A stretch of 53,716 nucleotides of DNA, counting the filler, from Circinaria calcarea (lineage: Eukaryota), in the NCBI GenBank assembly GCA_051942165.1. It is 3 parts of 3 records of this genome, joined end to end, with 100 filler letters (N's around TTAATTAATTAA, not from the genome) between each part and the next. Parts side by side here need not be neighbours in the genome. Positions count along the whole stretch, not along the records: positions 1 to 17,870 come from JAVECS010000252.1; 2 more parts are not named here. One strand, written 5' to 3'. Made by a program: the position numbers and the translations under genes. How positions within the stretch are numbered: position 1 is the stretch's first letter; every line of letters starts with the position of its first letter. Of this stretch, positions 1 through 46,314 are shown piece after piece. The notes under the pieces are model-generated. The model saw nothing but the letters and a program-made list of their open reading frames with translations. It had not been told where the DNA came from and ran no database searches.

Positions 1-1
1 C

Positions 2-1189
2 ACTGCGTGCAGCGGCGCAACTGGTCGCAATGGCGGCCACACAAAGCATGCATCTTATTTGTCATTTCTCGACAACTGTGATGCATTGGGCAAAGAAGAG
101 GCAGCAAAGATCGCGAGATTCGAGTATAAATGTATGAAAGCCATGCATATTTTTGCCAGGGAACAGGGTATTAAGTGTGATAGCTGGGAGGGCGATACCG
201 TTGACATATTCTATGACGAAGGGAAATGGAGGCTAGCACAGGAAGCCGTACGTCAGATGAAAGGGATACTGGGCGAAACAGACCCCGTGGCGAGTTATAG
301 GTTTTGGAGCTCAGACGAGGCCGAAAAGAAATTTCTCACGCAAGGCGCATTTGCCGCTGTCACATACAAAGCAGGAAGCATCAGTGGGTACAAGCTTGTA
401 ATCGGTATCCTAAAGTTGGCAATCGACAAAGGTCTGAATCTGCAGACGAGAACACCAGCCACGGGGATCAGCAAGAATGAACGAGGGTGGGTTGTCGACA
501 CACCTCGAGGTTCCGTCGAATCCTGTAGAGTTGTACTTGCAACAAATGGATACACAGCCCATCTGTATCCCGCACTGCAAGGGGTTCTCGTACCATTACG
601 AGGTCATATTACAGCTCACAGACCTGGAAGTAACATGCCAAAGGAAGGACTTGCAACAACGTATTCCTTCATCTATGCAGATGGATATGAGTACATGATC
701 CAACGACCGCAAGGTTCTAAGTTCGCCAGTGATATCATTATAGGTGGAGGATTGACCAAGGCGGCAGAAGAGGGACTATATGAGTACGGGACCACGGATG
801 ACACAACCATGGACCCTATAACAATCAGCTATCTTCGAGAAAGTACCCTCCGTTATTTTGGTACGAATTGGGGAGAGGATGATGCTGAAGGTAGGATCCG
901 CTATGAATTCAGTGGAGTCATGGGTTTCGGCGACGGCTACCCGCTCGTCGGCGAGATACCCGGGGAGGACCGCCTGTTTATCGCAGCTTCATTCCAAGGC
1001 CACGGCATGGTATTATGCATGCTATCTGCGAAGGCTTTGGTGGAAATTATGAACGGTGAAAGGGGAAACGACGTTTGTGAATGGTTTCCGAAACCTTTTC
1101 GCATGAGTGAAGAAAGATTAAAACACAAGTTCCAAGGAAGACTACACACGAAAGTACTCTATAAATCGGGTAACGAAAGCCAGCTATAA
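2..1189 (+). CDS. FAD-dependent oxidoreductase (DAO/glycine oxidase-like family), 5' end outside window
   Basis: Frame open from base 2: CSGATGRNGGH, VVLATNGYT, LRGHITA, GVMGF..DGYPLVG and FQGHGM motifs typical of fungal DAO-family oxidoreductases; stop TAA at 1187-1189. Confidence 0.88.
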   Translation, partial: TACSGATGRNGGHTKHASYLSFLDNCDALGKEEAAKIARFEYKCMKAMHIFAREQGIKCDSWEGDTVDIFYDEGKWRLAQEAVRQMKGILGETDPVASYRFWSSDEAEKKFLTQGAFAAVTYKAGSISGYKLVIGILKLAIDKGLNLQTRTPATGISKNERGWVVDTPRGSVESCRVVLATNGYTAHLYPALQGVLVPLRGHITAHRPGSNMPKEGLATTYSFIYADGYEYMIQRPQGSKFASDIIIGGGLTKAAEEGLYEYGTTDDTTMDPITISYLRESTLRYFGTNWGEDDAEGRIRYEFSGVMGFGDGYPLVGEIPGEDRLFIAASFQGHGMVLCMLSAKALVEIMNGERGNDVCEWFPKPFRMSEERLKHKFQGRLHTKVLYKSGNESQL

Positions 1190-1398
1190 GCGTCTGTGGT
1201 CTGTCTATGTGAAAAACTTTTTTTTGGGAGGAATCGCTGGTCGACCATCTTACAGTATGCTCAAGTGGTAGAGCATGTATTGAGTCTGCCGCCTCCCTTC
1301 GTACCATATGTTCATCTTCGACTTATAGTAGACCAGTCGTGTTGGGCGGCATCGATTTCACCTCAATAGGTCAACGAATTCGACTTCCTGTGAGGCAA

Positions 1399-1731
1399 TC
1401 AGCACCAGCCACAATTGTTGGAACCGGGGATAAAAGTACCCGAGTCACGCTGATCCTTAGAATCGCCGTTCATACCGTCCAACGCTTTGCTGTATCTTTG
1501 GAGGTCATGCTTCACATTGCGAGCTCGAAGAGATGGGTCTTGTTGTTGTCCGATAAGAAAGGCCTGATATTGATCATAACCTCCTTTGAACTGACTCATC
1601 GAGTATGCGGTTGATGGGTTGTGGAGAAAATGTTGTCTGCCATCCTGGCTATTGGAGTTGGTTCTGTGGTTACGATCAGAAAAGAAAATGATAGCTGACG
1701 AACAGCCACGGAAGGGAAGATCTTACGCCAT
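1399..1731 (-). CDS. Small hypothetical protein, paralogue 1 of a four-copy local family (89 aa)
   Basis: ATGGC|GTAAGA micro-exon 1727-1731, intron 1664-1726 ending CAG, exon 2 1399-1663 in frame: MATNSNSQDGRQHFLHNPSTAYSMSQFKGGYDQYQAFLIGQQQDPSLRARNVKHDLQRYSKALDGM...CGWC*. Shares DQYxAFLIGQQQ with the copy at 6351. Confidence 0.7.
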
Positions 1732-4700
1732 AGCTTAATATGATTGGGGCAATGGTGATCTTATCAGCCCTGAAGATTATCATACCGTAGCCTGTCTAGA
1801 AGAGAAGAGGGATGGTGAAGTTCTCTGGTTACTACCCTCATACTTATATACAATCGGACCTTCGCAGCTGGGGATGAAACGATAGGAGATAAATATACTC
1901 AAACTCCTCATAATGACCAGGTCATCAATCATAAAGCTGATTGACTGCTACTGCGATAGTATGCCTTTTCTTGCTCGTCTGCGATACTACTTGGGCCTAG
2001 TGTGGTTTGGCGAACTCGCATCCATCGCATGTCAGGATGTGGAACCTAAAACAGTACGCAGCATCCTTGACGGCTGTCAACTTGCTGCAGAAGAAACTCC
2101 TGGTAGGCCAGATTGTGGAAAGGTCTTTGCCTTACCCAGCTGCAACATTGAGAATGTGCAGGGTTGGGTGCGCAATCCAGTGAAGCGGTGGACCTCTCTG
2201 GCCCACGGCCAGCAGGAGAACCACCAACCCATGCCGCCTCCTTGCTCCCAGTTCTCCGACATCCCATCTTCCAGGTACCAATCGTTGTCGGACAATTCCA
2301 TAGCTACCTAAGTACAAGCATCTCCGCCTTCCGTACCTTTTCGTCGCATCATTGCTATTTTCCATAGTTGTCACTCTTATTGGCTACAGTTGCTGGACTA
2401 ATCATGAGCATCCGCCCCCTTGGCCCAGGGAGCTGGCAAAGGATGAAGAGTTCACGAGGTAGATCGGGCATTATCAAGACGGATCATTGCGATGGGATGT
2501 TGAGACAGTCCAAGGATACATGGAGTACCTTTTCCACCGAACGTCGAGGGAAATAACAAAGCGTAGACAGATCTTCGGCGAAATTGTCGCAACTGTTAGC
2601 TACCTTGAGCGTGGATCTGTCCCTACGAAATTGGTATCACGATCTTCGTCGAAGTCAGAATCCACTGGGATGAATTCCTTCCACTAGCCGTGTTGCAAAT
2701 TGAACGAGTTTTGTGGAGGAAAACAACATCTGAAAAGTGCGGTCAACCTTGACCAGTCGATTGAATCCTGTGGCCGCCCCCGCTTCCGAATTCGGGAAAT
2801 AAACCGATAAGGATGTGGAATTGTCCAGAGTATTGATTTTCTTCACCGCAAACGATGGTACTCGAGGATCGAGCTACGCTGTGCATGGACGGATCAGCAT
2901 GCAGTCGTAAGTGCGCCTCGTGGAGCGGCATGCGGGATTTTAGGTTTCTCGCCCACGTGGAGTCTTTGTCGGAGCCTTAAATTGATTGCGCTACCAAGCT
3001 GCTGCTCGTGTGAAACAATCATCGGATAGATGGAAATCGATACCGAACTTGACACAGCTTGAGCATTTGAAAAGCTGGCGTCGGTGGGGGTGCCGCAGCC
3101 TAGCATGTGCTTCAAGATCTTGTAGGGGCCGGTGAGCAGTTTCAGTGATCGTCAGGGATGTCAAACTGACCTTGCTTTCACGCCATATTAACTGTTGGTT
3201 AGACGTTTGACTGACTCAAGTGTCAAACTTGCAGCTCGATACAACGGCAGCAGATCATTTATGTTAGGTCCTACATGAACGCATAGGATCGAGGGAGGAG
3301 GAGGCGGAGGAAGAGAAAGCGGAGGAGGAGCAGGCAAAGGAGGAAGGGCACAGAAGCAGCATGAGCAAACCCCAAATCGACTAAGCGTGGCGTGTGTGCG
3401 AGAGAAAAAGACTTGACAGGAATCCGGAGATCGTCAAAGTCAAAGTCCGGCTCTGGCAAAGCCCATAGTAAAGCATTGCCTACGAAGTTATTTGCTTACA
3501 CGAAGCCGCAAAGTTACGGAAGGAAGGGGACGAGACAAATGATAAACTAGACTTGTTGAATTTCCTAGTCTCGGATCGAGGTTAACGTTGTCCTTACTGA
3601 AATGTAATACCAAATCGAGCAGGCTAAAGCGCGAGCTCATGTCTTATATGCTTGGTACCATACAGACCCTACAGTGAACAATCTCAGCCATGTCTGAAGA
3701 CGCTGTCAGAGTTCTTGCCTAGTGTGTGAGGCGAAGCTGACAATCATGTTATGTTGGAGAAAGCACTCTGTACTGGAACCACCTTGTCTGCTTTGCAACA
3801 AACTGAGGGATAAAGGTGGTGCGGTGTAGTTTCACACACGTGGCTCCTACCCATTATGCATCTTGTCTACATACGGATTGCCCACCTTCTCCTTTTAGGC
3901 CTACAGGGAACTTGCTGTCACTGGGCTTGGCTATGATCAACGCTTCTGATACGCAAGGTATTCTACCGTGAGGCTTCGCGCGAATGTTCTGGCGTCAGTC
4001 GATGGCTGCTTACTGTGCCTGACGCCCTGCCTCAAATCCGTTCGAACTATTCCAGGGATGGTAATGCCGTGCAACTCGACAGCATGATCTAATTATGCCG
4101 CAAAACCTGACACCCAGCATCATGCCACAACATTGAGATGGACGTTGGCACCCTTCGGATCCGTACCATTCATCATGAGTGGTCCGTGTTTGGTTATTTG
4201 ATGGAGGTCTATTTAGGACTGCTACTGTAACTCCGGACTGGCGATCGAGATCCTCTTTGCAATGTCCTGAGACCGCACTTTCCATAACGGTCACAGGCTT
4301 GGGGCTCGGAACTAATCGATACGGCCGTTACAAGGATGCAAGTCCAACAATCAGAAATCGGCCCGGATCTCGGATCTCATCATGCTACTCCGTACCAACA
4401 ATGGTATATCCTTGTTGCTTATGACCCAGCTACATAGTAGCGACTATCTGTGTGCTTGCCATTCTATACCGGGGCGTAGATCAATGCATAACTCGGTCGG
4501 TTCGCCGAACGTACCGATCCAGATTTTCCATTAACAAGAGCCGCCCGCGCTATAAAAGGGTAGGGTAGGGATTGGTATTCGCAAGGGGCTCTATTGATAT
4601 CCCTTCACACGTGTGTTACCGACGCAGCGGTTTGCTTAGATCCCTGTTCCTAGTCTGCCGTTACCCTAAATATTTAGTCTCGTCTGGACACCTTGAGGCT

Positions 4701-6350
4701 TAAAATCCTCCTGTCCTTCTGATGAATGCTACCCAAGATTTCTACTAACAGTTATTGCTGCGTAATATCTATTCATGCTATGTTTGGCTTCTTTCGAGCC
4801 AGATCATGCCTGGATGAAGCGCAACATGCGGCAATGACTCGAAATGCAAGGACTGGTAATTCCCTCAACTGACCTGGGATGGGATGGCCAACACAGAGTT
4901 TCACCTGACTTACAGGCTACAGCTGTCCTTGCCCTCAGCTGCTATTGCTACGATGCATTCATAGTACAGAAATGACTCTACTCGGTATGCTTACTTTCGC
5001 ACCAGATCATTGTTCATGCGCACCAATCAGATGGCAATTCACCCGCAGCCGGCGCTCGAAATCCCACTCTTATCTTCCGATGGACCACACCCTAATCTCC
5101 TATGCAAGGTCCGCGCATCCATTTGGACCTTCGCCGTCATGGCTGCATCAATGCTGATTCTGGTATGCGCTGGGATTGCACACATTACTTTCCCCGGCTT
5201 CTTTCCTGCTTCCTTCCGGCTTCCTAGCCCTTGCCATTAATCCCATGAAATATTCTGCGTACAAGCGCACCGTGTCACTCGAGCTTAAGTATCCCTTCCC
5301 CGTTTCTAGCTTTTACATAATGAGATTGGAGCGGAAGCCGGATGATACGAATCGTCGATCCCACCCCCGGGACATTCGGCTTCGATTTCTCGAAAATTTA
5401 ACATTTAGATAACGCAGGAAAATGTGAAACTGCATATTGAAATCTCAGCCGAACTTAATAGCCAGCATTGCGGGGATCATGGGGTCGAATCATCGATTTT
5501 CGTCCAGAGGATATGATTCAACTTGGCCAGCCTCGGCCCTTGCAATGGGTTTGATGCGCAGGGATGAACCGGGACATCGGGGTTAGGATAGGATTCAATG
5601 GCAAACAAATGCAGTGCAACACAATGTTTCCTTTGTTGGATAAAACCACCAGTTAGTGGCAATAACCGTTCAGTAAGTTGTTCATTTACGTACGAACGCT
5701 GTCCCTTTTGAGCTAGCCATGGACTCTTTTCTAGGCGCTTCGCTTTACCCGATTGTGCTATCTATGGCTTGAGTGGCGAACACTTTGGTCTAGATAAGCT
5801 TAATATGGATGCGAATATCGAAAGAGGAGTACAAGATACTCTCCATCTAAGTTATCTCTCCCGAGCAGCTGATAGCAGGAGTCGCATGGGAAATATTTAT
5901 AGCTAATCAGCATAAAAGCAGAGTGTATTACATTAGTTCAAGAATGGAGCCATTATTAAACACGCACTATTATATAAAGATTGACATATGAGCTATATAG
6001 TTGAGTTATAATCGAATGGAAGATACGCCGGCTAAACATACTCAAACGCCTAGCACGACAGCGACAGCCAATTCGTCAGATGCAAGGAATTCTTTGAATG
6101 GATATATTGCCAATCGGGGAAGAGAGGCCACTTCACTAAACTAAACAGGAGTGGAAGAGGCTATAGACGAAATGAGAGATCGAAGACACTGTCGAGGTGA
6201 ATACGCCAATTCCATGTTCGTCAAAGGAGAGAAGCAGATACGCAATCCAAAGTGGGCCTGTTCACCACGATCGATTCATAACAGGCTTCAGATTTTCTGC
6301 TTTCCTAACGCAACGTTAGTAAGGCTAGGCAAGTATCTCCGCCGAATTGG

Positions 6351-6672
6351 TTAACCAAAAGAACCTTCACCATTACCCTTTCCGCCTCCGCTCATCCGCC
6401 TCCACTCCTCTTCCCACTGTTCAGTTTCTCGAACCGTGGCTAGGGTTCTTTGGGGATGCTCTTGTTGTTGGCCAATGAGAAAGGCACGATACTGATCAGC
6501 CTCGGCGTAATACTGCTGCATAGCTAGGTTCCCTTGGGGGTCATTCCTTGTCTTCTGGGTAGTGTTTTGAGGATTCGAACCAGTACTGTTGCGGACGGAG
6601 CAAGAGTCAGTACAGTGAAATAGGCTGCGGATTCCGGGAACTACGCAATGAAAAGCGGGGATCTTACGCCAT
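6351..6672 (-). CDS. Small hypothetical protein, paralogue 2 (79 aa), absent from the ORF track
   Basis: ATGGC|GTAAGA exon 6668-6672, intron 6586-6667 with CTGAC branch site and CAG acceptor, exon 2 6351-6585: MATGSNPQNTTQKTRNDPQGNLAMQQYYAEADQYRAFLIGQQQEHPQRTLATVRETEQWEEEWRRMSGGGKGNGEGSFG*. Confidence 0.78.
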
Positions 6673-9600
6673 GGTGCGGATTCTCAAAAGCACAAAAGTT
6701 TCACGTCTGTGAAGTAAGAAGGTCTTGCTGAGTCGGCGAAATGCGAGAGTAGATATCTAAGATGACTCGTTGCAGTATTCTAATTCAAAGGTTGGCGTTG
6801 CTCCCAAAGATTTCTCAGGAGTAGGGTCTATTAATCCCCTTTCCAGATGTCTTGTTGAATTAACAGCAAGGTAAGCGACTGTCACGTCACAGTTGGCTTA
6901 GGGCCTTTGAGCCCATACTGTGGCAAGCTCGACCCGCCAATATGTCATACGCATATACAGAAACCTAGATCCCTGTTACCATATGTGTCACCCCGCAGTG
7001 TGGGCTTGTTAACAGAAGCCTAGGTAATTGGATCCGAGGATTGTGTCAAAGAGCACAGGTTGAGTACCTATGAGTGGCTAATCCGTATAGTGGCCCATGC
7101 TTCCTTGTCCCACCTAGTAACCAGATTCATCACAGAGGAAACATGGCACGGTTCGTCCAATGGAAAATAGACGACAAGGTGATAATAGGATGTCTAACGA
7201 AGGGATGTTCCAGATACGTACAATCCTAGAAGATGATTTCATCCTTGTGCAACACAGACAAAGACTGTGGTCAGTGTACGGTTTAAAGGCAGGGGCAGAA
7301 CAACTTGCATGAGCCGTGGGCTCAACATCCTGAGTCCTGTCACCGAATAGGATCGCGGTGGAATGTGACAACAGGGGCATAACGCAAATCACACGATACA
7401 CATGACAAGGAAATTGCGGACGCAGCCACGACGTGTACATTGGAGTGGCCTTATAGGGTTAGTCACCTTGCATGATATATTGACGCTGGTTCAACCTATC
7501 AGCACTAGTAAGTCATCAGCTCTGCACGCGCATGCCCTGATAAGTGCTGCTAGAGTCAACGATTAGAGGAATCCACAAGGAATCAATAAAGGATCAATAC
7601 GATGGAGATTCGGAGGGCAGTAGAATGTGGGAAGACTATTGATTGAAGCGCGATACCACCACGCTAGTAGCAGGGGCTAGCTTATCGTACCGGAGCTTTC
7701 CACCCGCGTTGCAAGGATCATCGAACTTCTAGAATCACTCGATGAACTGGGTATCAAACAGGCCTGCCCCTGTACATGACCTTGTATCGTTAACGAGTTG
7801 CGCCCCATTCAAAACCCCAGATAGACTTAATCTAAGTCTTGGAGATAGACTTCGTGTGAGTGCAGATCCAGTGTTACCATAGAGAGACTGATTGTCTCAC
7901 CTGCTAACACGAGATGACCTTTCAGAGGCAGAAAGTGACGGAATTCGCTTGCCCTTCCTACATCGAGAATAGATCTTGTACCAGTTTATTTTAAGAGTGT
8001 CGTTGTGACTATGATAGCTTACACAGTGGTGCTTGTGCGACGGTAGCAACGTACCTGCTCCCGGCTCAAATGTGCATTTGAACAAAGGATGGAGTTTGAT
8101 AGGACAACTCTGGCGTTACGTTATGTCTGCCGTTAACTTTAATTTACCAGGGGACAACCTGGCCAGGGCTAAAGTAGGTGTAGTTCTAGCGCATATTTAA
8201 ACTTCTTCTTTGGAAACACGGGATATCCCTGCTAATGCTTATGCCACATAGGTTGGAAACTAGCCGCTTGCCAAGTCTAAGTTTGGAAGCTGGATGCTGA
8301 TCCACTTCCCCGGCTTTAGTCTCCCTACGAGGCTTTAAGCTTACGAGTACATTGTGGAAAGCAGGACCATCGGATGGTTACATGTTCTCTCCCGCCAGGT
8401 GTGTCCTCTGGAACCCGTCCAGTAAATGGCTTGCATACTCATGCAAGCCACTAAGTCACCCGGAAATTAGGCCCACGGTCGATTGACCTCCTTTTGTGTA
8501 CGGAGTACTCGAAAGCCTACAGGCTTGCCGCAGTTAGGCGGCCGAGAGAAGCTTTGGCGGTCGATCCGAGTACACGTCAGTGCTGAACACCGGAGTAATC
8601 CTTGTCTCATTCCGCGTCTTGAGTGAGTCTGTACCGTTCGCTGAACGGTGTTACACAGCAGGATGGAGGCAGCGTAATCACGCATGCCTCGTCATCTTCG
8701 CTACTACGATCCCACTGAGGCTCTGTCGCAGATGCAATATTTGAACCAATTGACCGGAGGGTATAATTAGCCATTGAAGGAGCTCGTCCCGAACAGGAAT
8801 TGTAGGATAGATAGTATACCAATTGTGGTTCAGCTCTTGTCAACGAGATCTGCCAAGACTGTCGGGGAGCGGCGGAACTATTAAACCGAACCCCGGCTGT
8901 GGCTATCTCATATCTTTCCGGGAAGGAAAGGCTTTGGACTTCATCCAACTAAGGAGAAGTGTCATCGAAACTGTAAGGAAAGGATAGCGTTGTCTTGTAT
9001 CCTCATACCGATCCATCCTGATCGTGAATAAGATGTACAACTCTTCCAAGTAGGACCATCCAATATTTTTGAGGGCAGGCTTATTATGAACACATCCCCA
9101 TCAGCCTTTCAGACACTCGATAGGTAGAGCACCAACGTTGGGAATAGGGGTTCTTATCCTGATTTCTAGTAGAAGTGGTGGTTAATCAAGCTAAGAGCTT
9201 TCAAACCAGACCTGGAAAAAGATTTTTAATCCAGTATTCTTACATATCATCAGAGTCATGAAATTCAATCGTCTCCGAAAGGCCATAATCATCTCCATGT
9301 CCATGGGAAACTCAACAGTCGCGCCAGCTCCAACTTAGACTGCTAATGGAAACAAGAACGCAGCCGCAAAATTCTGTTGGACTCGCCAAGCTTATGTGCC
9401 GGAGCGGTATGAAGTCCCATATATAATCTGTATTAGGATAGGAGCTTGTCGGGAGCGGAGTGGTAGTCTGAAGCTCCGCACATGGCATCCCAGATCTGTT
9501 GTTGAATCTCTCACTGCCTCTTCAGTCCGCACAATGTGTCTATTTAGGAAATACTAAAGGTAATCTCCTCGCGACATGCTTTTCGTTGACTCAATCACAT

Positions 9601-9907
9601 CAGGAATCGCAAACGGGTGATTCTCGATATGAGTATTCTTGCTAATGGTAGGATCCTAGCCGTTGCAGGCAGCTACGTTATCACGGGACGGTAAACGGTG
9701 AGTACCATGCTCATATGTCACGATCAAACGTGATAAAGCACTGTGACGATGGCGATCTTCATATATTTCCTCATAACTCCTGTTTATCGTACGAACTTCT
9801 CGGGTCAAAAAAACTCCCAATGCCGTTTACTTCCATATCATTTCAATAGCACTCCCTTCATCTTTCCCACACCAACCACTAAGGCAACGAGTCTCAAAGA
9901 AAATGTT

Positions 9908-10258
9908 TCAGTTACGAGATTGACTCGTTGACGGCAAGTCCTTCGCTGTGCCGGTCTGCGTCATACGCTTCCAATCTTTCTCCCACTGTTCCATCTCGCG
10001 CTTAGAGGTTTCATGCCGAAGAGACAAGTTTTGGTGTTGACCGGCAAATAGGGCACGCTGGTGATCATACTCTGCAAGGTATTGTTGCATGGCGTGGCCA
10101 TCCCGAGTATGGCGGGGTGAAGGTTGGTCGGTATGGACATGACTGTCTTGGTCTATGTTGATCCTACGCAACAGAACTTTAGGTTAGCAAGCCTTACGAA
10201 ACCGGCAAATCGCTAATTTTAAAGCTGTTTATCCAATATGAAAACGCTCTTACGCCAT
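9908..10258 (-). CDS. Small hypothetical protein, paralogue 3 (86 aa)
   Basis: ATGGC|GTAAGA exon 10254-10258, intron 10164-10253 with GCTAAC branch site and TAG acceptor, exon 2 9908-10163: MAINIDQDSHVHTDQPSPRHTRDGHAMQQYLAEYDHQRALFAGQHQNLSLRHETSKREMEQWEKDWKRMTQ... Confidence 0.78.
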
Positions 10259-12258
10259 AATGAGACACTGAGCGCGTGATTCAAAGATAGCCAAGACGTT
10301 AGAGCAGATATGTGGTTTGGTGAACAGGTAAGGCGGACTGGTAAGGTGGACGGCTAGGGTGGATAGGCGTGGTGAATAGGTAAGGTGGAAAGGTAATTTC
10401 GGAGCGGAGGCGAGGCAGCGAGATACTCTTATGGTAGAGAGGCATATAAATTTGGGGACGTCAGGAAACAGGCGGAAGTGAATGGTAAATATAGCGGGAA
10501 AGGAAAGCGAAGGCAGGGGAGTCGTCAAGGCGTAAGCTCACATGAGATAAGATTGGTGATTGGAGGCCGACTCAAAGAAGAAATGGTCAAGAGAAGCGAA
10601 GTATGGAGGGCGTTGGGGAGCTTCTTGTACTTTGCATATATGGTTTGGTGGGTTGATGAGGGAAATTGAACACGAGCCACCATAGTTCGACAGTGGTTTG
10701 CGAGCTTATAGCAATAATCGTGTACGGTAGCGGTGAATAAGTTTGTGGCCCTCTTTGCCCTCCTTCATGGTGGTCTTCATGGGTGCCCTGTTCGGGTATG
10801 GGCGGCTACCGACCTGTTGCTTGGGGAGTGGTGTGAAGAGTCTAAGAGAGTCTTCTTGGCAGAGAGCACAGCCACAATTCGGAGGTTAGCAAAAGTCAAA
10901 TCGAGATTATCCCTTGCAACCGCCCCGCCGTCATTGCGACCCATTCCGGTCTCTTTCTCCCATCGGTCGTGACGACCATGCACTATGTACAGGTGGCGGA
11001 CATTCTAGGCGGGATACCAAACCCATTATTGCCATTAACCCCCCACCGGATTCTTACACCGTAGCAGATGTTACCTTAAAGCCACTGTCACGCTTCCGAT
11101 GAGGCAAGCAGGCTTGGCTCACCCCGGTATAACAGCGTAAGCTCACCGCTTTGATTTACCAAAATAGAGCCTTATCCCGTAGGTTGATCTTTTGCCGGGG
11201 AACAGTAATGGGAAATCCCCGACATTCCTACTATCGTAGGGAACGTATCATGTGCTGCACCTGATTAGTTTTTCTCGCAGCTTTGGAAGCACATCGGCTG
11301 CGGGAGGTCGATCGGGGAGCAAAGTTGAGCAAGAATATAACCGAGAAAAAAGGAAGCAAAGGCACGTTCCCTGTAAATGTCTCTACCACAGCATCATTGG
11401 TGTAACCAAAGAGCCTTTTCCTTAGCCGCATAGTCGACTGTACTCGGTCAAGTCGTACAGAGTGGATTGGTCTGTTGGACATGCCTGCTATTGATTAAAG
11501 CGATCCACCTCGCCTAACTACCAACCGAGCCGTGAAGTCCGTGCGCTATGGCATCCAAGCATTGGTAGCGGCGGGAGCGATCTTCCACGTGTATCGGGGC
11601 CACATTTCAAGCATAATCTTTGACAGATTGCGCCAGCGCCAGCGCTAGGGTCAGCCCCGTTTCACCGTTTCTGGATGCGTGGAAGGCTAGAAAATTTTTT
11701 CCTTGCGCCATTTTGTTCAGATCGGTCATTTTACTCGAATCTTGTGATTATTAGCCCGGACTTGCACCCGTCAGGGGGTGCAGCAAACTACGTGTGATTC
11801 CTACAAGCTTATCAGATCGGACGATGCTTGACGTTCTCGCCCAATCCATCAAAGTACGTCATTTAGGTGGGATGCGCCGCTTCTGAATCCACTGCATGTT
11901 TGAAACGCGTTGCTCCCCTTGATAGCAAGTGCTTACGCCTAAGGAAATGATTAAGATATCTTTTTCGTGTCCGCGTTCGATCGTTTCTTGCGAGCGCCGA
12001 TTTCTTGTTGTTTACTTAAAGCAAAACGCGATTGTAATAACTTTTTCCATGGCCTTTTGTGAGCTTTATCGGTTCATCTTGTCAACGGAATGTATTGCTA
12101 CTTGGCTCACTACTTCTATATATCGTACATCACCACTTTCAAAATCCGCAATACCTTTTGATCGTTAGGAGCCCATATGTGATTCGGCAGATCGCTTCCT
12201 CATCTACGCCAGCAAAGGGAACTTGGACCAAGGCTCCTTCTGCATGGGAAAGACTGTG

Positions 12259-12597
12259 TTACGCAGTATTGGAGCCCCCTGCCTCCGCCATACGCTGCCA
12301 CCCCTGCTCCCATTGCTGTTTCTCATGGGCCGTAAGCTCTGGACGAGACTGATCTTGGGATTGGCCAATGAGAAAAGCGCGGTATCGGTCATGCTCTGCA
12401 TGGAACTGCTGCATGGCAAAACCATCCTTGACATGGTGATCTTCAACAGGTCGTGACGGAGGTTGGTTCATATGGACTTTGTCGTCCTTATTTCTTTTGA
12501 TCCTAAGAGAGCGACATTCATCATTAGCGGCGGTGCAGTGATTTAAGACTATTACTGGAAAACGGAAATTAAGGAAAAAAGAGGGTCCTTACGTCAT
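12259..12597 (-). CDS. Small hypothetical protein, paralogue 4 (82 aa)
   Basis: ATGAC|GTAAGG exon 12593-12597, intron 12503-12592 with GCTAAT branch site and TAG acceptor, exon 2 12259-12502: MTIKRNKDDKVHMNQPPSRPVEDHHVKDGFAMQQFHAEHDRYRAFLIGQSQDQSRPELTAHEKQQWEQGWQRMAEAGGSNTA*. Confidence 0.78.
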
Positions 12598-15500
12598 GAG
12601 GATGCTGGGCTTTCGGAGTTCGGAGTTAATAGAGAACTTCCAAGTAGAGATAAATGGCAGGCGTACCGTTGATGTGGAAGCGGCGGCGAAGCTCCAAGGT
12701 GGTGGTGGGGTAGGGGAAATTGCGAGCGCAGGGGTTTGTGGATGTTAAGGCGGAAGCCGAGGAGTGAGATATTCGAGAGTACTAAAAAGGGACAGAGGGC
12801 AAAAATACTGCAACGCCCTCGATTCAGATAATGTATGATCGAAAATCAGACATTGACTCATATACCGTCAATCCAGGGAAAGAGAGAAGGAAATGGGTGC
12901 GAGCGCTCTTTATGTTAGGCCTTAAGAGCAAGGCCCGAGTATACTGTTACAAATCATCCGGCTCTGGTAGGTAGGTGTGGGTCCAGAGACCTAATCTGTG
13001 AACCCGGGGCGCAGACTTAAGGTAGGCACTCACTGAACAGCTTTTACTATTCCACTGTGGGATCAACACTTCATGGATCCCTGTTTAACGCTTAGACCGG
13101 TGGGATACTATGTATGCAGCGTTCCATGATAAAGCGGTGGTCTCACCACTTGGTGGCGTCCCGGAGAGTTACGACTCTTTTGTGACGATAGGTCGGAATT
13201 TCGTGGGTCAGCGGAAGCATTGCCAGCTGGGAGCTAGTGTCAGAATTTGCACAGTGACTGGGGTGCAAATCCCAGCGGCTGGCCCTCTCAAGGTCCCTTG
13301 AACCCCGCGTTGCTCATAATGATTCGCCGTGCCAATGCTGGGGAGGGCCACCCGCTCGTGTCTGTACCGAGTAAATAGAGTTTAGGGCGTCTGTCAGATA
13401 TTGGTAGCGTTCACCATAAATGTCGATCTCCGCAGATAATCGGTGCTAAGCTGAATAAGGCGGGGCAATTAGGGCTCCCGGTAAGGTTATCACTAAGCCA
13501 CGTGATAATTCACTCCTTAGTCTCAATGTTAGCGGTATGATTGCCTTAAAAGGGCAAACTCGAACCTACCTTGAAACGGCATTATGCTGGTACCAACCAC
13601 ACGGATTGAACCGGCTGCCGAATTTATAATCCAGCCCTTCACTTTACCTCTGCGAAAAGCACCAGGGAATTTGGTATCTATGCAAGCTGTAACTAGCTTG
13701 AAACGGTATCCCCGAATTCAGCTAACACCTGTTTGTATCATCGTGCGGCGGCGAAGCGGTCACGAGTACTATTCTAATCCCCATCTAAGTTAGGTAGAGT
13801 TCGAGGCGCAACCGGGTCTCTTAACTAGCTGAAGATCACGCTACATCGATTTTTTCTATCCCATGATTCCTCACCCCGGGAGCCATAGCTTGTGCCAGCC
13901 TTGTCATGGCAGAACCTTATCCGCTGCATCAGCAGGAACAAGAAAGGTACGAGTAACTAGCTCTTAGGCCGAGTTCTTTTGGGGATATGACCGACTTTAC
14001 TACGGTATTTCAACCAAGTAAATTATAAGCATTTTTTATTTGTTCCATACGTGTCGCGTTCCTCTTCTGATAATTTGATGCGTGGCAAGCGAGGGTTGAA
14101 AGAATCATCTTTAAGAGATGCCATATAGTAGCTGTTTGGATGAGAGTGGTGGGCAAAGGGCGTAATTGCCGATTGGATCCAACTTAGCAGGCGAGGTTGC
14201 AAAACGTGCAAAACATTCCTCCTTTGGTAGTTCCCCCGTTACCTGCAGCGCCTATATTCCTTCAACCACTTGAAGAATTTCTCAGGCACACAAACAGTCC
14301 TATCAAGAGGCTCGGCGACACACCCGCAAGACCTTAGAGGGTGGTGCAAAAGCCTCTCGTAAGACTCGTTAGCTAACCATTCAGAGCTCCGCAAACCCCT
14401 TTCTGGTTTGGCGAATGAATGACTTGCCCCTTGCGATACACCACATCCTGCCTTTCCGCCCGATGCAACAGTGTGACTCTTGCAGCATTGCGAATACGTG
14501 TCATACTTGTGAGGCTGTGGATGGGCGAGAAGCGGCCGCTATTGATGTAATTAGATAAACGTTGTTGATGCCGGCAGGCTCCGATGGTGAGACGATAAGG
14601 TTATCGCGTGGAAACGGCGCTATCCTTACGGCGCTAACTGCGAGCCGGTACATGCGCCTTACTCAGTACGCCTTAGTGCCTAACTAAACTCTCGGAAACG
14701 CGGCTCTGTTCGTCCCATCAGAGCTCGATCTGATTGTAACGGCCCTCCAACTAGGACAAGTGTCATCAGCAGGTACAAATGCCATGCCGGTGACGATGCA
14801 ACAAGGTAGCCCATCCTTGAACTTTAGCTCCTCGGCCTTTCCCGAATCAAGCCTCCCCTGGTGGTTCTGGATGTATTTTCATGCGATGATCCTGGTTCGG
14901 CGAACTGTTATTGCACTATCAGGAGGGGCTTTCAAATAATCCCAGAGCCCTTGCTAGTTCAGGCTGCCTTCGTTCTCACATATTGCCTCATTACGGTGGA
15001 GTTGACATCTGTCAAATTTACTTATGCACTTACTACATGCAGTAAAGAACGTCTTATGCACCACATTCCGCCCCTTTACAAGGTAATGATTCGATAAGAG
15101 CAGCTGTCGTCGAGGATGCATATCTAACGGGATTTTGTCCGTGATGTGGTATTGTGGATAAGCACGTGATATACGCTGGGGAATCTAGGGATCCCTTCCT
15201 TGCCACCCAAGGCCCTGGGTTACACGGGTGGTGGAGTTACTGGAAACGCTGTAATCCACTGCCATTCAAGATTTCCAATACCCCAACCTATTTGCCCGGG
15301 TGCACCATACCCTCACTTTAGAGGCTCGCATAGGGTCACCAGGGTCATCCAGGGGTACGAAATAAGTTGGATAATTTTCTAGGGCGCTTATACGACGGGG
15401 CTCCGGACCAATCAAGGGGTTCCTTAGGGCTGATTAACAGGTTCACTCAATAAACTTCTCTCAGCCTTCCAGGAGGCTAATTCATCTGGAACTCGCTTCT

Positions 15501-16485
15501 TAACAGACAGCCTCATAGGGTATGAAGGGTTCACCCCAAGTGGTTCCCCAAAGGGTACATCCCGCTCCCAGCCCGAAAAGCTTAGGGTAGGGTAAAAGGA
15601 CGCTGTAGTAACTTAGCGGCCCTATTTCGCCAAGAGTTGGTCGACGGTACTTGTTCCGGCGTCCTAAGGGTGTCAGGAACCTTGCCATCGATGGACCTCG
15701 ACTCTCACATAATCCCACCCATGCCACTCCAACGCCTCGCCATTCATAATCTCGTGGAGATAACAATCACCAACCACCCAGGCAATCATTCCCCATGTTG
15801 CCGTAAGACTAAGACTACAGGAGTCGCTACTAGCCATGCCAAAAGGCAAATTTGAAATCTCCGACTCACTTCCCCGCATTATCTCTTTCTGGCCCAATGT
15901 ACCCGCGCTCGTGTGGTAAACATGCGGAGCCGGTACGATGCCCCGCTTTGTTTGCGGGTTAGCGACCAGGCGAAAGGAGGTCTTGTTTGAAGGCGTTGAT
16001 CGAAGGGACCATGGCTCCTGCTCAGAATGGAGGTCTTTGCCCCGTTCCTGGTGTCAGCTCTCCTGGTGCACAATCGTCCGAGGTATCGTCCGAACTCTGG
16101 TACCGGCAATTTTGTCAAAAATCGACCGTGTTGAGGATCTGCAGTTGCACCAGTAGACCTCCTCCAATAGCATACGTTGAAGATTGCGCCTGGGACTTGT
16201 TTCCTGAGCCCTTGATGAGCAAGCCAGATTTTGTTGATGAGGAGAACTGTCTACAGCGCTTTGGAACCCTTCCCTTTTAGGAGCGGTATACTTCTGAGCA
16301 AATGCCAACCGTTCGCGCTCAAATACCGGATAAGCCGAGTTAACTCCTTCCCTTTTATATAGCAATGGACGCATATCACCGTACATGCTGCTCAACGTTA
16401 CTCATATATCATTGGTCCTTCACAGCTAGGGGATGAAATGGTGTAAGAGAAAATAAGTTTTTTATTTTTTACCTCCGGTGTCGCA

Positions 16486-17835
16486 TTAAAACGTCTGCTC
16501 CCCTATGCAAATCTCATAGCCATGTTCTCGAAGTTCCATGCATGAAACTCCAAAACAACGGTTTGGATTTTTCATTACACACCTCAAAAGCCCAATGACG
16601 TACCCGTCAGAATCAAAAATAGGGGACCCACAGCTCCTCCCATCGACAGGTTCGTTACTGTTCTCGAACAAATACCACTCATGCGCAACATAATTCTTGC
16701 CGCCACCATTAGAGACCCTCGCTCCAAGACCCAACACAACCCCCTCGCAATTCCCCGAAAAGGGATTATCCATGAAAACAGAATCATAGATCCTCAGATG
16801 TGGAGGGTATCCTGGAGATATGCTTCTCATCTGTACACCGCGCGGATTATTCTGGCTCCCGAATGTTTCATTCACGTAACGAAGGCCCGCGTTCAACTTG
16901 ACCATCGAAATATCGGTTTCAGGCAGAGTACGTACAATCCGCCCAACCACAATGCCTTTATAGGAATCGGGATGGTAGACAAGGCCGTCCTCCGCAAACC
17001 CACGGGTTGCAACTGTAATGTACAATTCGCCGCGGCCGTCCACCACCAGAATTCCAGAGGTGGTTGTACTGTAGAATTCTTCCGATCTTCCATCCTTGTC
17101 AACGGTTCGTATCGAAGAACTCAACATTACGCCCGGTCGAAGGAGTGCATTTGGCGAGGTCAGATAGGACGAATCGTCGTACTCCACACCGTCCGAGACT
17201 GTTGCTCTCAACGTTGACGGATCCTGGTCGGGAATCTCTGACAAAAACTTGTAGTATGCTCTGTGTGAGGCAATAAACGATGGAACAGCTTTCAGATCAG
17301 TACCATCAGGGATGCTGATCTGCCAAAACCCGCCATACCAGACAATGTCCCGTATTTCGACTTTCATGCTGCGAAAGACTTCCACGGCTTGCCCGAGGAT
17401 AGCATCGCAGAAGTGATCCGTCGTTTGCAAGTTGAACTGTGGAAGTGCTTTACCTCCCCTTCCCCCTTTTCCTCGATCGAAGCAATCGGCATATTCATCA
17501 GTGGTGAAGCGAACCGGCAGTCCACCGACGGTGAAGGGCCACGGCCTCGACGGCAGTGTCCGGACTCGAATGATCAGAAAGGGCGGACACACTTCGACCC
17601 CGACCGTCGTCGGAAAGAGCCGTAAGAGCTCCGAGAAATCTCCGCGGGGAGGCGTCGTGGCACGGCCCTCTTTCACGAGGGGGTATCCCAACTCGACTCG
17701 CTTGGAAACAGCGAGGGCGGCGTGGAGATCGGGGCTGCTTTGGTTCAGATCAACGTCAAACTGAGCATCTGTCACACTGTTTAATCCAAAAGTGCTTTTT
17801 TGGGGGGGGCATTTAGATAATCTCTCTCCTCTCAT
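16486..17835 (-). CDS. Hypothetical protein with a C-terminal trypsin/chymotrypsin-like peptidase fold; 5' end may run into the gap
   Basis: 449-codon uninterrupted ORF. C-terminal half has TTSGILV...YITVATRGF, ETDISMVKL and GRSCGSPIFDSDGYVIGL segments in the order of the His, Asp and nucleophile motifs of trypsin-fold proteases. The fold assignment is by eye. Confidence 0.65.
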   Translation of the reverse strand: MRGERLSKCPPQKSTFGLNSVTDAQFDVDLNQSSPDLHAALAVSKRVELGYPLVKEGRATTPPRGDFSELLRLFPTTVGVEVCPPFLIIRVRTLPSRPWPFTVGGLPVRFTTDEYADCFDRGKGGRGGKALPQFNLQTTDHFCDAILGQAVEVFRSMKVEIRDIVWYGGFWQISIPDGTDLKAVPSFIASHRAYYKFLSEIPDQDPSTLRATVSDGVEYDDSSYLTSPNALLRPGVMLSSSIRTVDKDGRSEEFYSTTTSGILVVDGRGELYITVATRGFAEDGLVYHPDSYKGIVVGRIVRTLPETDISMVKLNAGLRYVNETFGSQNNPRGVQMRSISPGYPPHLRIYDSVFMDNPFSGNCEGVVLGLGARVSNGGGKNYVAHEWYLFENSNEPVDGRSCGSPIFDSDGYVIGLLRCVMKNPNRCFGVSCMELREHGYEICIGEQTF

Positions 17836-17870
17836 ACCAAGAACCGATTCGTGTTGATTCGCCTCCTCTG

Positions 17871-18601: not shown

Positions 18602-18720
18602 ACATACGACCATAGACTCAAGAGAATTGGGTATCCCGTCCGCTCTGCCATACACAAGCTTGAGATCGGCTGATTAGTAGTTGGGTGGGTGACCACCAGC
18701 GAATACCAGCTGTTGTATGT
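18602..18720 (+). rRNA. 5S rRNA gene, full length (119 nt)
   Basis: ACATACGACCATAG...CCCGTCCGCTCTGCC...TTAGTAGTTGGGTGGGTGACCACCAGCGAATACCAGCTGTTGTATGT matches the filamentous-ascomycete 5S pattern. The ends pair (ACATAC/GTATGT) and a T-run Pol III terminator follows. Confidence 0.95.
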
Positions 18721-18750
18721 TTTGTTTTTTGTTTTTCCCGCCTCGTCTCG

Positions 18751-39801: not shown

Positions 39802-42236
39802 TCTTGCAAAAGCCGGACAAGATCCTCTGGTGGAGGTGTTTCTGGGTACAAATGAGACGGTACAAACGAGAGAGAAGTAAAGAATGACTGTTGGCAAGTT
39901 GGTGAGAAAATGTCAGCGAGGGGAGCGGGTACCAAGCGCGAAGAGATAAGCGGAACACAATCCAACCAGTAGGCAACGTAATCTGCACCGTAATTTCCCC
40001 TCTTTGTAAAAGCTAGTCGAGCTGGAGAGCATGGCTTGGGTTACTACGGCCCCGAATCAAGTCAAGGCCGGTACTACTGGTCGTGCTAAAAGAGCCTTTC
40101 GGCCTATAGAGGAGAGCCGATCCGCCAGAAGAGCAAACTGAGCCATAAGACCGAAGCAAAAGGCATAGGCAAGCATGAGATATTATTACAACTTGCCCAA
40201 AGAAACAAAACTGAAAAAGAAGCAATTTCGTTCATCGTGGTTCCAATGTTTCTATGACCATTCCAATCATCTTGCGTGCCAGCCAGGAAGATAGAAGGGT
40301 TTGGCTAAGAATACCACCTCAGATGGATACGAGATCGATGTGAGCTGAGAGGACGATGGCCAGGTCCTTAGCTAAGCTGGGCGACTAACGCACCAACCCC
40401 ACCGCTGCAATCCACGTAATCTTTGAAGAGCTTCATTGGAGGTGTGTATGCTGCCGTCCGGCAAAAGCGCTTCCGCAAGCACAAGTGATTGTGAAGATGA
40501 CGTCCGGATCTGCCCCGCTGATTGGTTGGCCGGTCAATTGGGTTGGAAATTTTCAAAAGCAGCCGGAGGGGTCCGCTGCTCGGATTGGCAAGCCATCATC
40601 GACGCCAGAATGAACCAGCATGCGTCTCGCATCTCTGGTGGAGATGCCCATGTCCAAGTGGTGTTGGAGGAGTAGAGCGAGCATCTGCGAAAGTAGGTGC
40701 ATATCTGGACTTGTCGTTGGCGTACAGAGTAGATGGTTCCCCGCTACCGTAGTGTGGGCATTCTCGCCCGAGAGCCGAGTCTTACGCTACTGCATTCCCA
40801 AGTATTAAATAGCCGTACTCCGTAAAGTAACCGCCACATAACGGCGTGAGTCGTAGCTCCATAAATTAGGCTAACTGCTGTAGGGATTTCCAGTTCTCGA
40901 AATATACAGTAATCAGGTTTGCACTGCTAATCTAGAGCAATGTCTCTACGAAAGTAGTACACGGGCAACGATATGATAAAGGGTAATACCTATTGAAATC
41001 CAGAACGGTGGTAATCAATATTATTACGAAATGGTCGGTTCTGTAAACTATCAACTCTGTTATCTTGATACCATAGCTTGGATATTCCTCTGTGCATCAT
41101 ATTGAGCATACTGTGTAGGCGAATTTGGTTTCGGAATAAAGCGGAGCTTCCATAGCCATACCCTTTATCTAGGTATATCCTCATCTCGGTAGAGATTAAG
41201 CGAGGTGTGATAATTACATAGTACACGGGTTTGCATGTGGTAGATCGGCCAAGCGTCCTTGGTGCGCTTTAATGCGAGTACATGTTCGCCGCTACTCCCG
41301 ATTGGGCATAGTCTCCAATCATCCTATCTTTTAATGTCCGACGTCAAAATATATTCATGATTCTCCTTATTTCTGCATGATTCATAGCAGATACGACCTA
41401 CGATACAGCCCGTCCCAGATCTAATCTGATGGCTGTCTCCACCAAAGCAACACGCTCAGCTGCCAAGGTTAGACCGCTAAGGTCAAGCCGCTACCGAGGA
41501 CATGAGCCGACATCGCTAGGCCCTCCTGTCGTATCCACCGTGCATTTACGCCGAAGATGTCCACCCGGCAAACTGGCTTTCCGCTGGCCTCTTCCGTCGA
41601 ACTAGAACGCTGTATTGAGAGGATCTTCTCTCAAACACGGCATTGTGCTCTGCAGCTATTGCAGTGGGCTTATGTTTCGTGTCTCGTGGCAAGAAAATCG
41701 CTTCACGCGAGTGGGTTTTTGGCGGAAATACCTCTATTCACCTAGGTATGCCTTCGCAAGACCGGTCTCACCACCGCTTTCAAGCCAGGTCTCGAAATGT
41801 GGAAAAGTGAATCTTAGTTGAGGTTTGGCGCCTCGGTGGACCTGCATGCAGTCTAGGATATCCGAATTGACGGTGAGGTTTCTCCTAGAGCCTATCCATG
41901 GCGCATACGAAGGCAGACTATGCAGCATTACAGCAGTGCAGCATGGATCATCAGTGTTCACTCCAGGCTTAAGGTTTTTCAATGCAGCAGTGGCTTTCAT
42001 TAAATGCCATATCCAGCTAAACGAAACCATTGATCTGGATGTTGCTCTTCGGGAGGCAAAAACCATGGTTTTATATATTTACTAGCTGGCGGAAGATGGA
42101 ATTGACAAAGGGAACCGTTACTAGGAGTATTTACACCCCACGCATAAACAGCCATCTTCATCTATCTTATCTTTAAAAAGCTCAAGAACCTGCTAAGAAA
42201 GCCATTTCAAAGGACTTTGTTTCAAGATAAATCAGA

Positions 42237-45200: not shown

Positions 45201-46314
45201 CGTCTCCAAGCTCTGTGTTCAAAATGATGTGAGAAAGATAGTTGTACATGTCCGAGCTGACAGTGTCGAGCACGGCCTACAGCGCGTGATCAAGTCAGCG
45301 GCCTTGGCAGGATGGTGGTCAGACTTTTACCTCCAGAAACTGGAGATCTGGATTGGAGACCTTGCACGACCAAGATTGGGCCTAACCACCGACCAGTGGG
45401 ACCGTCTCTCCGGAAAAGGGCCTCTCGTTGACCGTGTTACAGCCATTATTCATAACGGTGCAGCGGTTCGTTGGAATGCCGATTTCTCAACTTTGAAGGC
45501 CGCGAACGTCGATTCCACTGTGGAACTCCTGAAAGCGACCTCTGAGTCTTCGTCAATCTCAAAACTCGTTTACGTCTCTGGAGGACAACAACTGAGCGTA
45601 GAGGAGGACAACGACCAGAAAATTGCCGAAGAAGTCGTTCAGTCTAATGGCTATGCTCAGACTAAGTTTCTTTCGGAAATGCTTGTCAAGGACTTCTCGC
45701 GATGCAGCACCCGAAACTCGCAGCGAGTATCGATTGTTAAACCTGGCTACATTATCGGAAGTGTACAAGAAGGGATCGCAAGCGTGGACGACTTCATTTG
45801 GAGACTAACTGCCAGTTCTATTGACATCAAAGGATACAATGCTGTTGATGCAGATTCTTGGCTCTTTATCTCCGACGTGGGTCGTGTTGCTGCAACTATC
45901 GTGGGTTGCTGCGATGTGAAGCCCAATTCCTCTATCGTTAAGATTTTAGACGGAGTTACCGTGGGGGAGTTTTGGGATGTGCTGAGGGATGAGCTTGGAT
46001 ACGAGCTATCCCCCCTTAGCCAACCATCTTGGATGCATGCAATCCAAAAAGAGATCGAAGCCAAGAGGGAGGCTCACCCCCTTTGGCCACTTGTTCATAC
46101 GGTCGAGAAGGATCAAGGTAAACTCGGATCATTGCAAGGTCCTCCCGGCGTCGTTGCCGTGGACAAATCACGGGTGAAAGCCGCCATCAAGAAAAATGTG
46201 GAATTCTTAAGCGGAATCGGATTCTTGCCCAAGCCGGATGGGGAGAAGACAGTGTTGAGTGGCCACGACGGCTTCGCTTTTAGCCGGTCACCGCAAGTGT
46301 TCGTTGCGGCTTAG
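42237..46314 (+). CDS. NRPS-like enzyme, (partial C)-A-T-R, about 1332 aa
   Basis: Exon 42237-42866 (LQLAWALVLRSY..VCFG, C-domain remnant), intron 42867-42945, exon 42946-46314. A-domain motifs FTSGSTGKPKG, YGPAE, YKTGDL, KIRGQRVELGE and SGKIDRK; T domain GLDSI; SDR-type reductase VTGATGFLG and YAQTK. Confidence 0.93.

Follow-up and report, generated by a model that had tools for sequence, protein, structure and literature searches.

What are the four short genes that follow one another on the minus strand between positions 1399 and 12597 of a 53,716-nt stretch of the Circinaria calcarea genome (assembly GCA_051942165.1), and what might their products do? The stretch, referred to as the window in this work, consists of three parts of the assembly joined by filler letters, and the genes lie in the first part (positions 1 to 17,870, JAVECS010000252.1). 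An earlier note on this DNA had described them as a four-member family of spliced genes that it did not recognise. Our analysis shows that the family is real: a group of small proteins from lichen fungi that has not been described before and that is larger and older than first seen. We regard it as almost certain that this is an old paralogous family of hydrophilic proteins of ~80 aa, represented in this genome by six genes (four of them in tandem), with a phase-2 intron after the first codon and two further nucleotides, maintained by purifying selection and having homologs in two subclasses of the Lecanoromycetes.

Structure of the tandem genes

A scan of both strands of the window for ATG-NN-GT[AG]AG yielded ten sites, four of which were the family genes, and the coordinates, strands and lengths reported for these genes were all correct. 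The narrower pattern ATGRCGTAAG occurs four times in the window, every time at a family gene, whereas its mean number over 100 shuffles was 0.13 and none of the 100 shuffles reached four. The introns have the form GTAAG...YAG, and the products read in frame are 89, 79, 86 and 82 aa long for copies 1 to 4 (Table 1), hence the proposed arrangement (ATG-[G/A]C, a GTAAG donor, then one exon giving 79-89 aa) was reproduced. In copies 2-4 a branch-site consensus is found 25-26 nt ahead of the acceptor. The only branch site of copy 1 is weak, and this copy contains three possible in-frame acceptors, which would lead to products of 89, 84 or 80 aa. We infer the splicing of the four introns from these signals. 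The description of the first exon as 5 nt long holds for its five coding bases but not for the exon as a whole, which also includes the 5' untranslated region (UTR). In copy 1 the position of a TATA-like element ~115 nt upstream of the ATG suggests an ordinary 5' UTR of some tens of bases.

In five of the six genes of the genome the unspliced RNA reads ATG-NNG-TAA, a start-stop frame of two codons; this is the automatic outcome of a phase-2 GTAAG donor and does not imply regulation. The layout as such, an ATG soon followed by an intron, and tandem copies, is ordinary for fungi.

Table 1. Positions of the four tandem genes and of their elements in the window
Feature	Position	Strand	Remarks
TATA-like element TATATAAG	1843..1850	-	~115 nt upstream of copy 1 ATG; read from sequence
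Copy 1 exon 1, coding part (ATG + 2 nt)	1727..1731	-	ATG at 1731; same in second haplotype, contig C1273
Copy 1 intron, 63 nt, phase 2	1664..1726	-	weak branch site; other in-frame acceptors give 78 or 90 nt
Copy 1 exon 2 + stop	1399..1663	-	helix-1 motif kept, W..W motif replaced; groups with P0019, P0020, P0022
Copy 2 exon 1, coding part	6668..6672	-	ATG at 6672
Copy 2 intron, 82 nt	6586..6667	-	branch site ACTGAC 26 nt before end
Copy 2 exon 2 + stop, 79-aa product	6351..6585	-	64% identity to outside homolog P0011
Copy 2 conserved helix 1, M-x-x-[YF]-x-x-E-x-D-x-Y-R-A-F-L-[VI]-G	6471..6521	-	alignment and structure model
Copy 2 conserved amphipathic helix 2, E-L-x-Q-W-E-x-E-W-x-R-M	6390..6428	-	alignment and structure model
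Copy 3 exon 1, coding part	10254..10258	-	ATG at 10258
Copy 3 intron, 90 nt	10164..10253	-	branch site GCTAAC 25 nt before end
Copy 3 exon 2 + stop, 86-aa product	9908..10163	-	63-67% identity to P0005 and P0012
Copy 4 exon 1, coding part	12593..12597	-	ATG at 12597
Copy 4 intron, 90 nt	12503..12592	-	branch site GCTAAT 26 nt before end
Copy 4 exon 2 + stop, 82-aa product	12259..12502	-	51-67% identity to P0006, P0007, P0008

Further members in the genome

When the C. calcarea genome (31.5 Mb in 5512 contigs) was searched with eight proteins and one further query, three further loci were identified, on contigs C1273, C998 and C1076. C1273 represents the second haplotype: it is 95% identical to positions 1-4177 of the window, including the non-coding DNA, and carries an intact copy 1. 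The other two loci are additional paralogs, thus the family is real but has six members in this genome instead of the four first counted, and because the assembly is fragmented these counts are lower bounds. The fifth paralog (C998) starts with ATG-AC followed by a GTAAG intron and contains both of the conserved helices described below. The sixth (C1076) starts with ATG-CC followed by a 53-nt GTCTGT intron, has helix 1 only, and scores 30.6 bits against a family hidden Markov model (HMM) built without it. In all six paralogs the intron follows the fifth coding base, which reflects one inherited ancestral intron and not six separate events. Weak matches were rejected on C108 (12.5 bits with the family HMM, antisense frame) and on C373, C495 and C134 (4.5 bits or less).

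The second haplotype (C1273 1-2456) departs from the window at ~5406, 3.7 kb upstream of copy 1, into unrelated DNA, which contains short repeats and an open reading frame (ORF) of 457 codons without Pfam match. This break between copies 1 and 2 is a possible mobile element or rearrangement. Since haplotype contigs of ~95% identity occur in at least one pair, the assembly may mix two genotypes or close species.

Homologs in other organisms

A phmmer search with copy 4 against 1.84 billion representative sequences (E<=0.001) gave 11 matches. Seven contained the family motifs; the other four (P0009, P0010, P0013 and P0015) are long repeat proteins that lack the motif, and were dropped. P0005 (1 match among 13 candidates), P0017-P0021 (10 among 122) and P0022 (5 among 244) came from profile searches, which brought the number of outside homologs to 14. 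Three of these are named, and all three are annotated at NCBI as hypothetical proteins of Lecanoromycetes belonging to two subclasses: MMC24_003350 of Lignoscripta atroalba (Ostropomycetidae; profile E 1e-24), Q9182_000832 of Xanthomendoza sp. (Lecanoromycetidae; 2e-25) and MMC21_006319 of Puttea exsequens (Lecanoromycetidae; 0.023). It must be noted that MMC24_003350 and Q9182_000832 were already in the query profile; their independent phmmer E is ~5e-4. The expectation that gene finders could easily miss such genes was thus partly wrong. By sequence the three proteins belong to the same family, and they are mentioned by name in no paper of the library searched. They are 83-102 aa long, contain the helix-1 motif and start with MP or MT, which at the protein level fits a first exon of ATG plus 2 nt.

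So far, judging from the sequences with named hosts (3 of the 14), the family appears only in lichen-forming fungi. The searches are blind to remote relatives in other moulds, as detection of the 45-residue core needs ~40% identity. Similar small two-motif proteins occur in other filamentous ascomycetes. In two scans of metagenome contigs for family genes none of 384 and none of 302 pattern matches were confirmed.

In a tree of 20 rows the starred groups joined copy 1 with the three sequences named in Table 1, copy 3 with P0005 and P0012, and the C998 paralog with P0017; the tree left the grouping of copies 2 and 4 open. Because the starred groups include outside sequences, at least some of the duplications appear to predate the divergence from the organisms to which these homologs belong.

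Selection on the coding sequence

The earlier note had concluded from DNA-diverged copies with preserved frame and motif that the genes were under purifying selection. Codon alignments of exon 2 agree with this conclusion: the proportion of non-synonymous differences (pN) was lower than that of synonymous differences (pS) in all 21 pairs. In the core (42-43 codons) of copies 2-4, pS was 0.875-0.949 and pN 0.245-0.304, and because pS is saturated no ratio can be computed for these copies. The comparison of pairs gave no sign of diversifying selection.

Protein anatomy and database searches

Alignment confirmed the core motifs as first reported in all four copies, and the W..W extension in copies 2-4; copy 1 does not have the latter. 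The proteins are predicted to contain two conserved helices (~17 and ~13 residues) connected by a variable linker of 14 residues and flanked by variable polar tails, with a mean entropy of 1.30 in helix 1, 1.82 in helix 2 and 2.35-2.66 in the linker and tails. In the AlphaFold2 model of the copy 2 exon, made from an 18-row alignment, helices extend over residues 16-42 and 44-66; the mean predicted local distance difference test score (pLDDT) is 67.7, with ~77-83 over the motifs, and the predicted template modelling score (pTM) is 0.29. The low pTM predicts that there is no fixed tertiary fold.

The two helices differ in character. In helix 1 the hydrophobic moment is 0.13, the conservation moment is 0.09, and conserved residues are found on every face: in the 18 rows A34 is invariant, E28 and D30 are present in 17, R33 in 15, and F35-L36-[VI]37 is hydrophobic. 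Helix 2 is amphipathic (moment 0.48), L54, W57, W61 and M64 form one face, and the conservation is on this hydrophobic face. The W-x-x-x-W-x-R motif was found in 14 of 20 sequences; those without it are the members of the copy 1 group, P0021 and the C1076 paralog. Three sequences (P0011, P0014 and the C998 paralog) have V, I or L in place of the core Met, therefore this Met is not an obligatory start and translation of these three would have to begin upstream, which supports the spliced ATG exon. None of the four copies contains a hydrophobic segment (the highest 19-residue Kyte-Doolittle means are -0.12 to -0.63), in agreement with the original statement that signal peptides and transmembrane segments are not evident, and their grand average of hydropathy (GRAVY) is -1.15 to -1.53.

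No described family could be matched to these proteins in Pfam, NCBIfam or PDB sequence searches or in fold searches, in line with the earlier note, which had not recognised the family. No member reached the Pfam cut-off. Five weak single-member matches in NCBIfam (among 18 members) and two PDB sequence matches (E 0.41 and 0.59) were rejected. Foldseek with the model gave no match, and the best VIA-align score (Z 5.3) was to unrelated generic helices; with a low-confidence model this demonstrates neither a new nor a known fold. DUF2406 (PF10295), whose ascomycete proteins are likewise small and fungal, was also rejected: it was the top ESM Atlas match of two members, with a score of 0.80, but shuffled sequences reach 0.80 a third of the time, no member matches PF10295, and the true DUF2406 gene of this genome is on contig C1559. 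A literature search found no description of the family in the library searched, and the motif strings and locus tags appeared in none of its papers.

Possible mode of action

With confidence somewhat short of even, we lean to the interpretation that the family consists of intracellular disordered proteins which bind a conserved partner via two short helices. The proteins would stay inside the cell and fold upon binding to a conserved protein partner. Helix 1 would sit in a groove of the partner that surrounds it; being conserved all round, it looks more like part of a specific buried interface than like a helix lying on a membrane. Helix 2 would dock via its L/W/W/M face, either on the same partner or on helix 1. 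The proteins would thus serve as small adaptors or competitive inhibitors of the partner, having no catalytic, DNA-binding, secretion or membrane part, and the paralogs would supply forms that either keep or lack the W..W helix, with expression probably at different times. That the partner is a transcription co-regulator or another signalling hub is a guess. A more far-reaching version, which we consider distinctly doubtful, is that these are Lecanoromycetes-wide microprotein regulators in the developmental or symbiotic programme of lichens, each a two-helix competitive inhibitor or adaptor of one conserved hub protein, tuned by keeping or losing the tryptophan helix, with intron retention serving as an off switch or yielding a core-only form from the internal Met.

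Several of our own observations weigh against this interpretation of the family. A low pTM is also expected of any short protein modelled from an 18-row alignment, and helix 2 cannot be essential for all members, because the W..W motif is missing in 6 of the 20 sequences. Between its two haplotypes copy 1 has 5.5 non-synonymous and 2.5 synonymous changes (pN 0.026, pS 0.047), and the neighbouring flavin adenine dinucleotide (FAD) oxidoreductase is under stronger constraint (pN 0.014, pS 0.072) than copy 1, though the changes are few. Only 4 of the 17 inner branches of the tree were starred. As regards differential expression, no motif was common to the six 400-nt upstream regions, and in none of the 15 pairs was p<0.02.

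The main alternative, which we think unlikely, is that the proteins are hydrophilin- or Hsp12-like stress protectants, disordered and becoming helical on drying, which would shield membranes or proteins during lichen desiccation. The four copies are indeed small and very hydrophilic, helix 2 is amphipathic, and all three hosts with a name belong to the main class of lichen fungi, the Lecanoromycetes. The compositional definition of hydrophilins in PMC11277543 (Gly >6% and hydrophilicity >1.0) also covers three of the four copies in the window, a point that has to be added to those held above against partner binding. However, both properties are combined in only 8 of the 20 family sequences (among the 20 are some partial gene models), internal repeats are absent, and no Pfam match to LEA, HSP9/12, Con-6 or dehydrin was found for 13 members at E<=1 or for 7 more at E<=0.01. 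The lack of amphipathicity in helix 1, combined with position-specific invariant residues on all of its faces, suggests specificity rather than a protectant role.

The conserved-variable-conserved layout could also be that of a small-peptide precursor (RiPP-like, i.e. ribosomally synthesized and post-translationally modified, or pheromone-like), with a conserved leader and follower around a variable core cut out by a protease. A weak trypsin-like peptidase ORF, below the Pfam cut-off, lies 3.9 kb upstream of copy 4, and two weak UstYa-family ORFs are found at ~27 and ~33 kb. We nevertheless judge this improbable: the UstYa ORFs are 15-20 kb distant and beyond an assembly gap, the neighbours of the C998 and C1076 paralogs are not proteases, and the linker is conserved within each paralog group. 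Dikaritin (UstYa-type) precursors have an N-terminal signal peptide and repeated cores flanked by Kex2 sites, whereas the four copies have no signal-like hydrophobic stretch, and the family has no repeated cores and 0-3 dibasic sites in varying places. Precursors of the a-factor pheromone type have a conserved C-terminal CAAX; here a Cys fourth from the end occurs only in copy 1 (C-G-W-C) and not in the other three members of its group. The same trypsin-like ORF adjoining the array, together with the ~5% difference between the haplotypes and the unrelated block upstream of copy 1, might suggest that the genes belong to an allorecognition or cell-death locus and act together with the protease, since such proteases are associated with fungal cell-death loci. 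This is still less probable, because no NLR, HET or gasdermin Pfam match was found in the subset of window ORFs scanned, diversifying selection was not apparent, and the two dispersed paralogs have other neighbours. Homology to the bacterial ribosome-hibernation factor RMF (~55 aa, two helices, W..W motif) is largely excluded by sequence comparison, and a role of this kind is accordingly a very slim prospect. Copy 4 matched Pfam RMF (PF04957) with E 0.0097 and 16.4 bits (cut-off 27.9), but it was the only one of 13 members to do so; the family profile aligned to E. coli RMF (hhalign) with a probability of 0.4% and E 0.15, 18 members scored no more than 4.9 bits against a profile of 50 distinct enterobacterial RMFs, RMFs no more than 1.7 bits against the family profile, and the C-P-Y and G-W residues of RMF are not conserved in the family. 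Least credible of all is that the genes are silent relics or chance ORFs. The C1076 paralog, with its weak donor and lost helix 2, may for these reasons be decaying, but the frames are intact, the splice signals conserved, synonymous sites are saturated beside a conserved protein core, and there are 14 outside homologs. The rest of the weight we leave to functions that we have not thought of.

Relation to known systems

If the proteins do bind a partner through their helices, the closest comparison is with the bipartite helical binding motifs of disordered regulators, such as p53-type activation domains and 4E-BP-type inhibitors. The family as predicted resembles them in that a disordered chain carries two short helices in which aromatic and acidic residues occur, and helix 1 shows the same hydrophobic-x-x-hydrophobic-hydrophobic pattern (Y-R-A-F-L). 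The likeness is analogy, not homology, and the family has no DNA-binding domain. The eIF4E-binding motif is Y-x-x-x-x-L-hydrophobic; in the family the Tyr is four and not five residues before the Leu, i.e. one out of register. Yeast hydrophilins such as Hsp12, Sip18 and Stf2 (PMC11277543) are similarly small, very hydrophilic, probably disordered and intracellular. They have no sequence relation to the family, which differs from them in its position-specific conservation of W, Y, F, E, D and R and in its non-amphipathic helix 1, and 12 of the 20 members lie outside the hydrophilin definition.

Genes switched on in lichen thalli are mostly unannotated (55% in Xanthoria parietina; bioRxiv 10.1101/2024.08.16.608140), and a comparison of six genomes yielded one lichen-specific core orthogroup only (PMC9232553). 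The passages of these two reports that we draw on describe unannotated lichen-restricted genes as numerous, with induction of many of them during early symbiosis or in the thallus; they stress secreted or species-specific genes, whereas the present family is non-secreted and occurs in two subclasses, and they contain no description of it. Being short and non-secreted, with old paralog groups and defined invariant residues, the family stands out as a concrete candidate for a part in lichen-specific cell regulation or in the tolerance of drought, and a family this short is easily lost in orthogroup studies. Without a function it is one among many orphan families. What is new is a family whose small proteins are probably disordered and carry putative helical motifs for binding.

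Surroundings of the array

The array is flanked by the FAD oxidoreductase (2-1189, plus strand) and by the trypsin-like ORF (16486-17865, minus strand), which is intron-poor, has ~460 codons and matches Trypsin_2 with E 1.2e-4; its usual catalytic Ser motif looks altered (DGRSCGS). The gaps upstream of copies 1-4 are 4.6, 3.2, 2.0 and 3.9 kb. The C998 paralog has ~3.5 kb without recognised gene upstream, and the C1076 paralog ~1.3-1.8 kb up to a divergent zinc-finger-like ORF (motif read by eye); these two paralogs adjoin a coenzyme A-transferase and a beta-lactamase-family gene. By their sequence the spacers of the array look non-coding: among the 10 spacer or antisense ORFs with 100 codons or more, nine were scanned and all nine stayed below the Pfam cut-off, and Rfam gave no match in positions 1-17870. 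This part of the initial interpretation stood. The suggestion that the 2-4.6 kb spacers are large regulatory regions found no support, as upstream DNA diverges like intron and spacer (between the haplotypes 4.5-5.2%, with 11 indels, in the 2.4 kb upstream of copy 1, 4.8% in the intron and 5.7% in the downstream spacer) and, as mentioned, has no common motif.

A 58-nt segment occurs twice with ~78% identity (score 55 vs a shuffle maximum of 31). The first occurrence, at 1841-1895 (minus strand), has the TATA-like element of copy 1 at its end; the second, at 16399-16455 (minus strand), lies just downstream of the trypsin-like ORF. The second is not followed by a family ORF, and a DNA search of the genome found the two haplotypes only; it may be what is left of the promoter of a fifth tandem copy that was lost. 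Positions 10319-10402, in the pyrimidine-rich leader immediately upstream of copy 3, contain five to six degenerate 13-bp tandem repeats.

Elsewhere in the window there are two dispersed 5S rRNA genes, at 18602-18721 (plus strand) and 26629-26747 (minus strand), the second of which (42.6 bits) may be degenerate. The UstYa-like (DUF3328-like) ORFs mentioned above stand on either side of a cytochrome P450 gene in 27341-33612, and between them a direct repeat ending in LEKR, at 28893-29207 (minus strand), might be a dikaritin-type precursor exon. At 42231-46314 (plus strand) there is a gene resembling non-ribosomal peptide synthetases, with adenylation, carrier and terminal reductase domains, near a major facilitator superfamily transporter.

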